Source: Parachlamydiales bacterium (GTDB lineage Bacteria; Chlamydiota; Chlamydiia; Chlamydiales; Rhabdochlamydiaceae). Taken from it: a DNA stretch of 64,000 nucleotides. Under the pieces are notes generated by a model. It searched no databases, was not told the origin of the DNA, and saw only the letters and a program-made list of their open reading frames with translations. Numbering within the stretch: position 1 is the first letter of the stretch; every line of letters begins with the position of its first letter. Shown in pieces: positions 45,240 through 47,107 of the stretch. The position numbers and the translations under genes are program-made. The stretch is from contig OY970065.1 in assembly GCA_963705295.1 (NCBI GenBank), positions 1,408,001-1,472,000 on the forward strand, given 5' to 3'.

Positions 45240-47107
45240 ATGAAAAATTTGAAATACTGTTTGTTTATTTTATTAACAGGGAACTAAAAAAGATGACAAA
45301 GAGCGCTAGCGAGGCAAAGCCAGATCGATTCTCGCGAGGAATAACATTCTTGAATACGAAGGATTCCGAGCGAGAATCGATATGGCGAAGCCGTAGCAAG
45401 CTATTTGTCACCTTTTTTAGTTCCCTGTTAATATTTGCACTGTTTTCGTCTGTTAATGGTGATGAACCGATTGTTTTGAAGGTAAAGACAGCTGTTAACC
45501 CGGATAATGCATTAATTATTGATTTTAAGGTGAAATTGAATAAGCCGGCTATTCTTAAAATTTCTTATTGGAATGAAGAGGCGGGTGCATTCAAATATAA
45601 GCCACAACTCGACTTTTCTACGAGTCAGAGGTTTTCGATTCTTAGACTCAGGGCAGAAACCACTTATCGTTATTCTCTTGTTGCCATGGATCAAGAAGGT
45701 CATCGTTCTGAAAAATTCACTGGTAAGTTCACGACAGGCCCACTTCCGCCAGAAATAGCTGACATTTCTATTAAATTAACTCAAGGGAAAAGGACGACTT
45801 ATCCTCTGACACTTTTTGATCAAAACACCAATTTTTTTAATGGATATATTGCCGTGGACTCAACCGGACAAATTGTTTGGTATTACCAAAACCCGTTGGT
45901 GGAGCAGGTTGGAAATATCATCAAAATGCCCAGTGGAAATTACTTATATGCATCTGGCTTCTTTCTAAGCGGTTCATCGAATACCTTGGTAGAGATAACC
46001 CCATTTGGTCGGATGGTTCGGCAAAGCCCTCTTATTTGCAACTCATCCGTGCCCGTCATCGGTGGTGTTGATCTCCACGATATGCAGTATGTTGATGGTA
46101 AGATCCTTCATCTTGGTCAATTGGCTCCAAAGGTTCATGGATTTTCTCGTCCTCAACTGGGTGGAACGATCCGTGAATGGAATCTCGGGACAAATACAGA
46201 TCGCCTGGTATGGAACCCTTTTGACTTCCTTAACCCTGTTTCAGATAGATCGTCTTTATCGAACGTGATTATCGATCTGAGCTGCAAGGCGGCTATTCCC
46301 GCCCAAGATTGGATCCATTCCAATGCTCTTGCAATAGGATTAGACAACAACTTCATTTATGGCTCGAGAAGCCTCAGTCATGTCATCAGCCTAGGTCAAC
46401 ATCCTGACCCGAGAAATGAAGAGATTGCTGTTTGTCACCCCAGTAGAAAAGACCTTCCCTGCAGACAATGGATCTTAGGTGGAATTGACAGCGATTTTAC
46501 ATTTCCAAATCCAGATGATCAATTTTATAATCAACATAATCCACAACAAATTATTAACCTGAGGGGTCAAAAGGCGACAAGATGCGCTGCGAGGCAAAGC
46601 CAGATTGATTCTCGCGAGGACTACATTCTTGAATATGAAGGATTCCGAGCGAGAATCGATATGGCGAAGCCGCAGCAAGCAGGTTGTCACCTTTTGACCC
46701 CTCGGGTTAATAAATCAAGCAAATTTAAAACAAATATTCTTCTGTATGATGACGGAAATGAGAGACCCGCTTCACAAGGTGGGCAGTATTCTCGTGCTCT
46801 AGAGCTCGAACTCAATTTTAAGACAATGGAAGCTAAGAAAGTGTGGGAATACCGGCATAAGCCAGATATTTTTACGGATGCAGTGGGTAGTGTAACGAGA
46901 CTGGACAATGGAAATACGGTCATCGATTTTGGGTTCCCGCCAGTTCAGGATCCAACAACCCCGCCTACCCTCAGAATCATAGAAGTCACTCGGAAAGGGA
47001 AAATCGTTGCAGAAATCAATGTCAAAGCCTCAAAGAAAGTTGGGGATAATCTCATTTATAGAGCTCATGTCTTGGATACTCTCGCTGGGGAAAAACAGGT
47101 CCCATGA
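45240..47107 (+). CDS. arylsulfotransferase (ASST)-family protein carrying two palindromic-element insertions
   Basis: DWIHSN, FYNQH, YDDG, YRA motifs; ancestral ATG 45240 now frameshifted by E3; in-frame ATG 45293 inside E3; 51-aa E4 insertion. Confidence 0.75.
45274..45430. mobile_element. palindromic MITE-like element, copy E3 (153 bp plus TA), in the signal-peptide coding region
   Basis: TA-ACAGGGAACTAAAAAAGATGACAA ... TTGTCACCTTTTTTAGTTCCCTGT-TA; removing it plus one TA restores MKNLKYCLFILLIFALFSSVNG. Confidence 0.9.
46555..46709. mobile_element. palindromic MITE-like element, copy E4 (151 bp plus TA), in-frame within the CDS
   Basis: TA-ACCTGAGGGGTCAAAAGGCGACAA ... TTGTCACCTTTTGACCCCTCGGGT-TA; adds 153 nt = 51 codons. 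Confidence 0.9.

Follow-up and report, generated by a model that had tools for sequence, protein, structure and literature searches.

How a palindromic repeat can come to lie within a protein-coding gene while the reading frame stays open is the question raised by E4, an element situated in a gene for an arylsulfate sulfotransferase in the window, i.e. the whole stretch of 64,000 nucleotides that was analysed, positions 1408001-1472000 of a single 2.13-Mb contig of a Rhabdochlamydiaceae genome. The route by which protein-coding palindromes enter genes has long been an open question, since the type found in Rickettsia is without a known transposase. The main features of the locus, in window coordinates, are the following.

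45218..47107, plus strand: open frame of 629 codons with a GTG start, arylsulfate sulfotransferase (PF05935); the first 72 codons are off-frame upstream DNA and E3
46535..46537, plus strand: His440, at the position of His436, the catalytic residue in E. coli AssT; the insert follows five residues on
46552..46712, plus strand: E4, a palindromic MITE, both TA copies counted in; 159 nt or 53 aa net
46552..46553, no strand: probable left TA target copy, judged from the empty sites of two other copies
46711..46712, no strand: probable right TA target copy, judged likewise from the orthologous empty sites of two sister copies
46619..46624, plus strand: GACTAC, 1-nt-short variant of the core GAATAAC in the hairpin bulge, by which an in-frame TAA is removed

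E4 has the ends TATTAAC...GTTAATA and arms that are complementary at 24 of 26 positions; the element of 161 nt carries no transposase and folds as one long hairpin (z = -13.1; none of 200 shuffles folds equally well). In its codon phase it is open in both orientations. Within the open frame 45218-47107, positions 46556-46708 (153 nt) code in frame for the peptide NLRG...TPRV, as a preliminary description of this DNA had it; the span given there (46555-46709) was one base too wide on each side, and its 153 nt or 51 aa is not the size of the insert, which with the TA duplication seen at empty sites amounts to net 159 nt or 53 aa (residues I446-N498 of the 629-aa ORF). A 4-nt TTAA duplication, which would yield 51 aa, was ruled out by the empty sites of an AbiEii and a Fic gene (see below). 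The E4 segment is absent from all 19 aligned ASST homologues, the gap being 57 columns wide in 18 of them and 55 in one; a close empty site of the sulfotransferase gene itself was not found. No match to the E4 peptide, translated in both orientations, could be identified in Pfam or in NCBIfam, which includes models of Rickettsia palindromic elements, and a search of Rfam gave sub-threshold hairpin matches alone.

Four further elements with related ends or core are present in the window.

3209..3370, minus strand: E1, long-form copy, net 160 nt, non-coding
26261..26445, no strand: E2, sister element with the same end type and another core
45271..45433, plus strand: E3, a copy of the MITE in which the arms differ, in the stretch coding for the signal peptide; 161 nt net (3n+2)
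53742..53861, no strand: E5, short element of 120 nt with the same end type

The core of E1 and E3 is GAGGAATAACATT and that of E4 is GAGGACTACATT; the earlier observation that E4 is one base shorter and thereby without the in-frame TAA was confirmed on the sequence. Three further changes are particular to E4, two of them non-synonymous and one synonymous.

Element family and candidate mobiliser

A BLAST search of the genome with E4 gave 73 merged intervals, and the 44 with more than 90 bits were aligned; 41 of these have both ends and are counted as full-length core copies of the E4-type MITE, three partial ones being excluded from all later counts. Together with the sister elements, i.e. 23 with common ends and other cores and nine pairs found through an end profile, the family comprises 73 elements. 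The first 13 or so bases inside the ends occur as several types, self-complementary within each copy, and the core is nearly constant. Arms and cores form a mosaic among the 41 copies: the two arms of a copy change jointly, and four arm types are combined with the same 5-nt core block, GCCGC. The two bases beside the deletion are highly variable, and identical spellings, like the 5-nt block, are found again on different arms, probably through exchange between copies. A palindrome of a different family (G000:C1:924080-924245), with other ends and outside this census, has a small internal hairpin motif in common with the cores of the sister elements of 172-179 nt.

The E4-type end pattern was found in 23 of 129 genomes of the family and its reversed control in none. 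Named records that have these ends carry the label of Chlamydiae or Verrucomicrobiota MAGs, and a Chlamydiia bacterium has a protein containing a related insert. A plasmid collection gave no match, and scans for promoters and terminators remained at chance level. Family-wide selection for a net length of 3n was rejected, as 24 of 64 elements in this genome (about one third) have such a length; in other genomes it is 13 of 23, a set partly found with the peptide and composed of kin.

The insertion sites are T-TA-A in 32 of 64 cases. In an AbiEii-family gene that carries a second short copy, exactly 53 residues are absent from the orthologues (at most 85% identical) in all 11 that were aligned, and the flanks in a Fic gene match the F-V-x-P-x-L-V of its homologues only with a 2-nt duplication (four of four homologues). 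The target duplication is TA at these two sister copies and, by analogy, probably also at E4.

Duplication of TA points to the IS630 family of insertion sequences. In a family-wide search, DDE_3 was found in 49 of 129 genomes, and of the 30 IS630 loci checked in the family one has the MITE ends: a 1124-bp element in G094 (L052:1378-2501), which encodes an IS630 transposase of 348 aa with the first catalytic Asp changed to Ala. When this element was used as a query in 301 genomes of the order, seven genomes matched; the copies in G326, G376, G361 and G036 have TATTAAC-type ends and a length of 1122-1125 bp, and in the G326 copy all three acidic residues are kept. IS630 elements with such ends and of this length are found at the loci L052, L082, L083, L084 and L087, and the IS630 transposase profile NF033545 was matched with 207 bits (cut-off 100). 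The locus in G376 (L083, G376:C15) also holds an inverted partial duplicate of the IS630 element, possibly an assembly artefact. The right arm of E4 is identical to the end of the G094 element at 23 of 29 bases, and the arm of another MITE copy to the end of the G326 element at 26 of 27. By family, protein and DNA searches, no IS630 gene or remnant could be identified in the genome that holds E4 (94.7% complete). A Y1/RAYT mobiliser, of the kind of REP/REPIN or TIRYT, was considered and rejected, since the genome has one broken 54-codon Y1 match with no element ends around it. We infer that IS630 transposases with these ends move the MITE, and the ends, the copies, the TA duplication and the complete IS630 elements with common ends identify E4, at the level of sequence, as a non-autonomous IS630-family MITE.

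Short and long forms and their host genes

The 1-nt-short form is present in nine of the 41 copies, in four spellings (ACT and ATT three times each, AAT twice and CAT once) and with three arm types. A tenth copy loses the TAA without a deletion, so that ten of 41 copies are without TAA, in five spellings, and seven of these ten are in coding sequence; a single ancestral deletion does not by itself explain this. In the other genus with a common core, three of the four copies shown are long (AATAAC) and none is short, which suggests that the short form is probably derived.

The context of the nine short copies was classified by hand. Four read through genes: that of the sulfotransferase, that of the AbiEii protein, that of a 718-aa protein and, within the signal peptide, that of a GMC oxidoreductase. 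Two lie in the stop-bearing phase, in broken ankyrin and Fic genes, where the arm gives a TGA after eight codons. The remaining three are non-coding, one being in a stop codon and two directly before a start. The long copies, by comparison, are certainly in genes in two of 32 cases and possibly in two more, and none of the 32 reads through. The difference between the forms is significant by Fisher's test for location in a gene (p 0.0004-0.003) and for read-through (p 0.001), values that are overstated since the copies are kin.

To put these numbers against the supply of targets, TTAA sites were counted over 1595 proxy genes: 4301 and 3980 in two coding phases, and 1984 non-coding or in stops. 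Long copies in genes reach about 2-3% of the expectation from this supply, and short read-through copies about 50% (3 against 3). Short copies in the stop phase reach about 30% (2 against 3) and do not exceed the long copies significantly (p 0.08-0.18). The five short copies in genes with GGGG or GAGG arms, three read-through and two in the stop phase, fit the target supply (p 0.68). All counts of short and long copies are small and concern kin. As long copies are strongly depleted from genes, selection would act across the genome as a filter on a short form that already existed: in our reading, frame-breaking long copies are purged from genes while read-through short copies largely persist, and the short form belongs to a sub-lineage of the element and not to the sulfotransferase gene.

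A different view of the lesion, put forward in the preliminary description, is that the gene was first disrupted by a long copy and that a local change at the stop codon, whether by mutation or by conversion from a short copy, was then selected to restore the sulfotransferase. Five spellings remove the same TAA, mostly in gene-borne copies, and core variants are common across arm types, indicating recombination or conversion among copies, as such a rescue would have it. That selection on the sulfotransferase made or kept the lesion is not supported, as exact GACTAC is found in three of the 41 copies, i.e. E4, the AbiEii copy and a non-coding copy sitting in a stop codon (623616). That the variant should be common in intergenic copies had been named as evidence to the contrary, and this is partly the case, given the three non-coding short copies and the two in the stop phase. 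Moreover, the two short copies that lie in the stop phase of genes gain nothing from the short form, and restoring E4 would be pointless while E3 breaks the start of the gene (see below). We consider a local rescue improbable.

An assembly error, in which AA was read as A, would fit the fact that the deletion shortens an AA run; the missing base is carried at nine loci, however, seven of them with a neighbouring extra substitution, and is tied to arm type and coding context, and we give this explanation hardly any credence. One DNA sequencing run yielded a single contig of 151 nt in the gene, at 46012-46162, outside E4.

The explanation that we prefer, and regard as probable, is that E4 is an IS630-type MITE that landed already in the short form and was retained under a filter acting at the level of the genome, in a host gene that is more likely decaying. 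An IS630 transposase, supplied in trans or from an element since lost, would have inserted E4 at the TA of T-TA-A, duplicating TA, and the jumping copy most likely already had the 1-nt deletion in the hairpin bulge. This deletion would make the net insert 159 nt, stop-free in both orientations if the landing phase is nTT|AAn. E4 lies in this phase, in the turn after the strand of the catalytic histidine, where the frame would have stayed open without any gene-specific change. Selection at the genome level would then purge long frame-breakers from genes, and short read-through copies would persist. The variable bulge, the search that found no IS630 gene or remnant in this genome, and the single IS630 locus among 30 with these ends speak against this explanation.

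Other members of the family show a variety of positions with respect to genes. The short CAT copy at G000:C1:1899858-1900018 (L018) reads through the GMC oxidoreductase signal peptide in the second codon phase, where the more common arm types are stopped by a TGA that its own arms do not have. A sister element at G000:C1:1203045-1203217 (L037:3046-3218), net 171 nt, is in frame in a 918-codon NB-ARC/TPR gene, and a short copy at G000:C1:775775-775935 (L013) separates the ATG of an NB-ARC/TPR gene from its ribosome-binding site, GGAGGT. Related in-frame elements were found in other genomes in a MenE-like ligase (G021, L038:1994-2166), a signal peptide (G015, L108:1501-1673), a Fic protein (P0022) and further frames, and an Lnt protein (P0023) ends in the exit-frame peptide of the element. 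A search for the 53-aa peptide among longer proteins gave seven matches in 192 candidates, three of them from this genome. In the AbiEii gene dN/dS is 0.13 without acceleration, the insert being too young to show selection after insertion.

Some 11-14 insertions lie in coding sequence, and three genes carry two of them each, against an expectation of at most 0.05 such pairs if any of an assumed 1900 or so genes could be the target. Besides the sulfotransferase gene, these are the ankyrin (726852-727411, L012) and Fic (1308543-1309014, L017) genes of G000:C1, both broken, with elements of different cores; the Fic gene is also without some 80 codons beside the first element when compared with homologues of 483-506 codons. 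We read the double hits as a mark of dispensable genes. Local hopping as their origin was rejected, because the paired elements differ in core or arms in each gene, and the clustering of elements overall is not significant (eight gaps below 2 kb against 4.8 expected, p 0.10).

State of the sulfotransferase gene

The encoded protein matches PF05935 with 97.6 bits (cut-off 24.2), and a Foldseek search with the predicted model gave AssT as top matches (E 2e-16). His436 of AssT is the transiently sulfated residue according to PMC13426309; H440 aligns with it, and H287, H367, N369 and R384 are also conserved. In the homologues the site of E4 is a short LPNG turn between two strands. The AlphaFold model (alignment of 20 sequences, mean pLDDT 80) keeps these strands at 439-446 and 505-511, and the insert appears as a low-confidence loop, with pLDDT below 50 for residues 450-501. 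From the propeller topology the turn probably faces away from the active site, and in the model the 53-aa insert looks tolerable for the fold.

A search of 400 further genomes of the class with residues 80-444 as query did not recover the gene, whose nearest homologues are about 30% identical, and its codon GC bears no mark of recent transfer (GC3 0.375 against 0.432 +/- 0.071). Converging on it is a PF04185 phosphoesterase-family gene with a signal-like N-terminus (window 47119-48567, minus strand). This gene is followed by what we take to be the glycerol uptake genes glpF, glpK and a glpD-like gene. Tandem paralogue pairs are found at 36078-38068 and 24704-26091 of the window, about 1068 and 780 nt apart and with blocks of 73-85% identity.

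The start of the gene is affected by E3, as the following features indicate.

45240..45242, plus strand: probable native start codon ATG, with further ATGs of the same frame at 45225 and 45231; its signal-peptide-like N-terminus is cut off by E3
45285..45287, plus strand: TAA inside E3 that ends the native frame
45293..45295, plus strand: ATG in the sulfotransferase frame inside E3, 5 nt behind the TAA and stem-paired; candidate restart

From the three ATGs at 45225-45240 the native frame reads MKNLKYCLFI, and the other half of the signal peptide, FALFSSVNG-DEP, lies past E3. With its net 161 nt, E3 is out of frame and stops the native frame after five codons, so that the earlier notion of two in-frame insertions in one gene does not hold, and the export signal is not intact from the sulfotransferase's own start. 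The frame of 629 aa begins at a GTG in another phase and exists only through the shift made by E3; as judged from the sequence it is a chimera and not the native gene. Downstream of E3, 557 codons are open, and no mark of decay other than E3 could be identified. A long copy with an AGGA bulge at G000:C1:443688-443849 (L020) lies in the lipoprotein signal peptide of a solute-binding protein gene; there, as with E3, the native frame is stopped, and an internal ATG and a basic-plus-hydrophobic exit frame precede the lipobox.

This arrangement allows for a living gene, with the same origin of E4. Ribosomes that start at the native ATG would terminate at the TAA of E3 and begin again 5 nt further on, at the ATG that E3 contains; a new basic and hydrophobic sequence from the right arm of E3 would be fused to the half of the signal peptide that is left, the 53-aa loop would be tolerated, and the enzyme would be exported. 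From the ATG at 45293 the exit frame of E3 is indeed open and encodes RSRSK, behind which the mean hydropathy reaches as much as 2.5; the copy at 443688 has the same arrangement in a lipoprotein signal peptide, and the catalytic residues and the predicted fold are intact. Against this, a stem of about -100 kcal/mol takes up the ATG at 45293 and the bases upstream of it completely, a restart there would leave the signal preceded by 36 additional residues, most copies, non-coding ones included, have an open exit frame, so that no selection is needed for it, and the other doubly hit genes are broken. We hold a living gene to be possible, at clearly lower probability than decay.

A broader version would make the family a gene-compatible MITE lineage, in which the 3n short form spreads into the 89% of the genome that is coding, the 53-aa peptide is translated in several working proteins, and long copies such as E3 and 443688 provide a new start and signal. 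If so, the sulfotransferase would be a working enzyme with its start, its export signal and one loop all from a transposon, but we think this doubtful.

The sulfotransferase gene is, in our judgement, somewhat more likely to be decaying than to encode a working enzyme with a new loop, because it is an accessory gene in which E3 has disrupted the native start, and because the two other doubly hit genes are broken. Decay has to be weighed against the frame that is open behind E3, the intact active-site residues and the fold that is predicted to be intact. In either case the 629-aa database protein is a chimera made by a repeat, and an open frame across a MITE is no proof of a working gene. The outcome is the same as with the palindromes of Rickettsia, and here it is accompanied by a matching IS630 transposase, a TA target, orthologous empty sites and both long and short forms in one genome. 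With the two forms, the TA target and the transposase together, insertion, phase and tolerance therefore become directly testable.

Comparison with known systems

On the sequence evidence, the elements described here form a MITE family of IS630 type that is new and has a short form compatible with genes; the phenomenon itself is known. In-frame fusions of MITEs and similar repeats are recorded for several bacteria in PMC3184786 and PMC5896051, the former of which also lists RUP and YPAL/RU-2 as IS630-derived bacterial MITEs, and MITEEc1/ERIC is placed under IS630 in bioRxiv 10.1101/2024.01.18.576219. Chlamydiae are absent from the main text of that MITE survey, and its supplementary lists may hold the family; in literature searches directed at Chlamydiota no paper on the E4-type MITE family was found. 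As in other IS630-derived MITEs, the elements are about 160 nt long, have TIRs in common with autonomous IS elements, a TA duplication and a long hairpin, and most copies are non-coding with some host-frame fusions. The E4 family differs in being a sequence family of its own in Chlamydiota, with many arm types combined with several cores, and in having a 3n, stop-free sub-lineage inside genes.

The host protein resembles E. coli AssT (PDB 3elq, 4p07) and Cpz4 in its beta-sandwich and propeller and in the His/His/Asn/Arg/His active-site set; it is 14-18% identical to them and differs by the 53-aa insert after the strand of the catalytic His and by the native signal peptide split by E3.

The likeness to Rickettsia palindromic elements (RPEs) that the preliminary description had seen holds for the in-frame behaviour, the loss of one nucleotide permitting read-through (four of nine short against none of 32 long copies), and does not extend to identity, as there is neither a peptide match nor a CGTC tag and E4 is classed as an IS630 MITE. 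RPEs (Ogata et al. 2000, 2002, as summarized in PMC10969869) likewise are palindromes of about 150 nt that lie in frame in unrelated proteins and encode a recurrent peptide of about 50 aa; the corresponding hosts of the E4 family are the sulfotransferase, the AbiEii protein, the GMC oxidoreductase signal peptide and the 718-aa protein, and for the sister elements NB-ARC/TPR, MenE-like and Fic proteins. In contrast to RPEs, to which the E4 family has no sequence match, its ends are TATTAAC instead of the CGTC tag, and a matching transposase exists, whereas PMC3733652 reports CGTC repeats to be without a transposase. Finally, only five of the 73 copies of the E4 family read through genes, while nearly half of the RPEs are reported to lie in ORFs.
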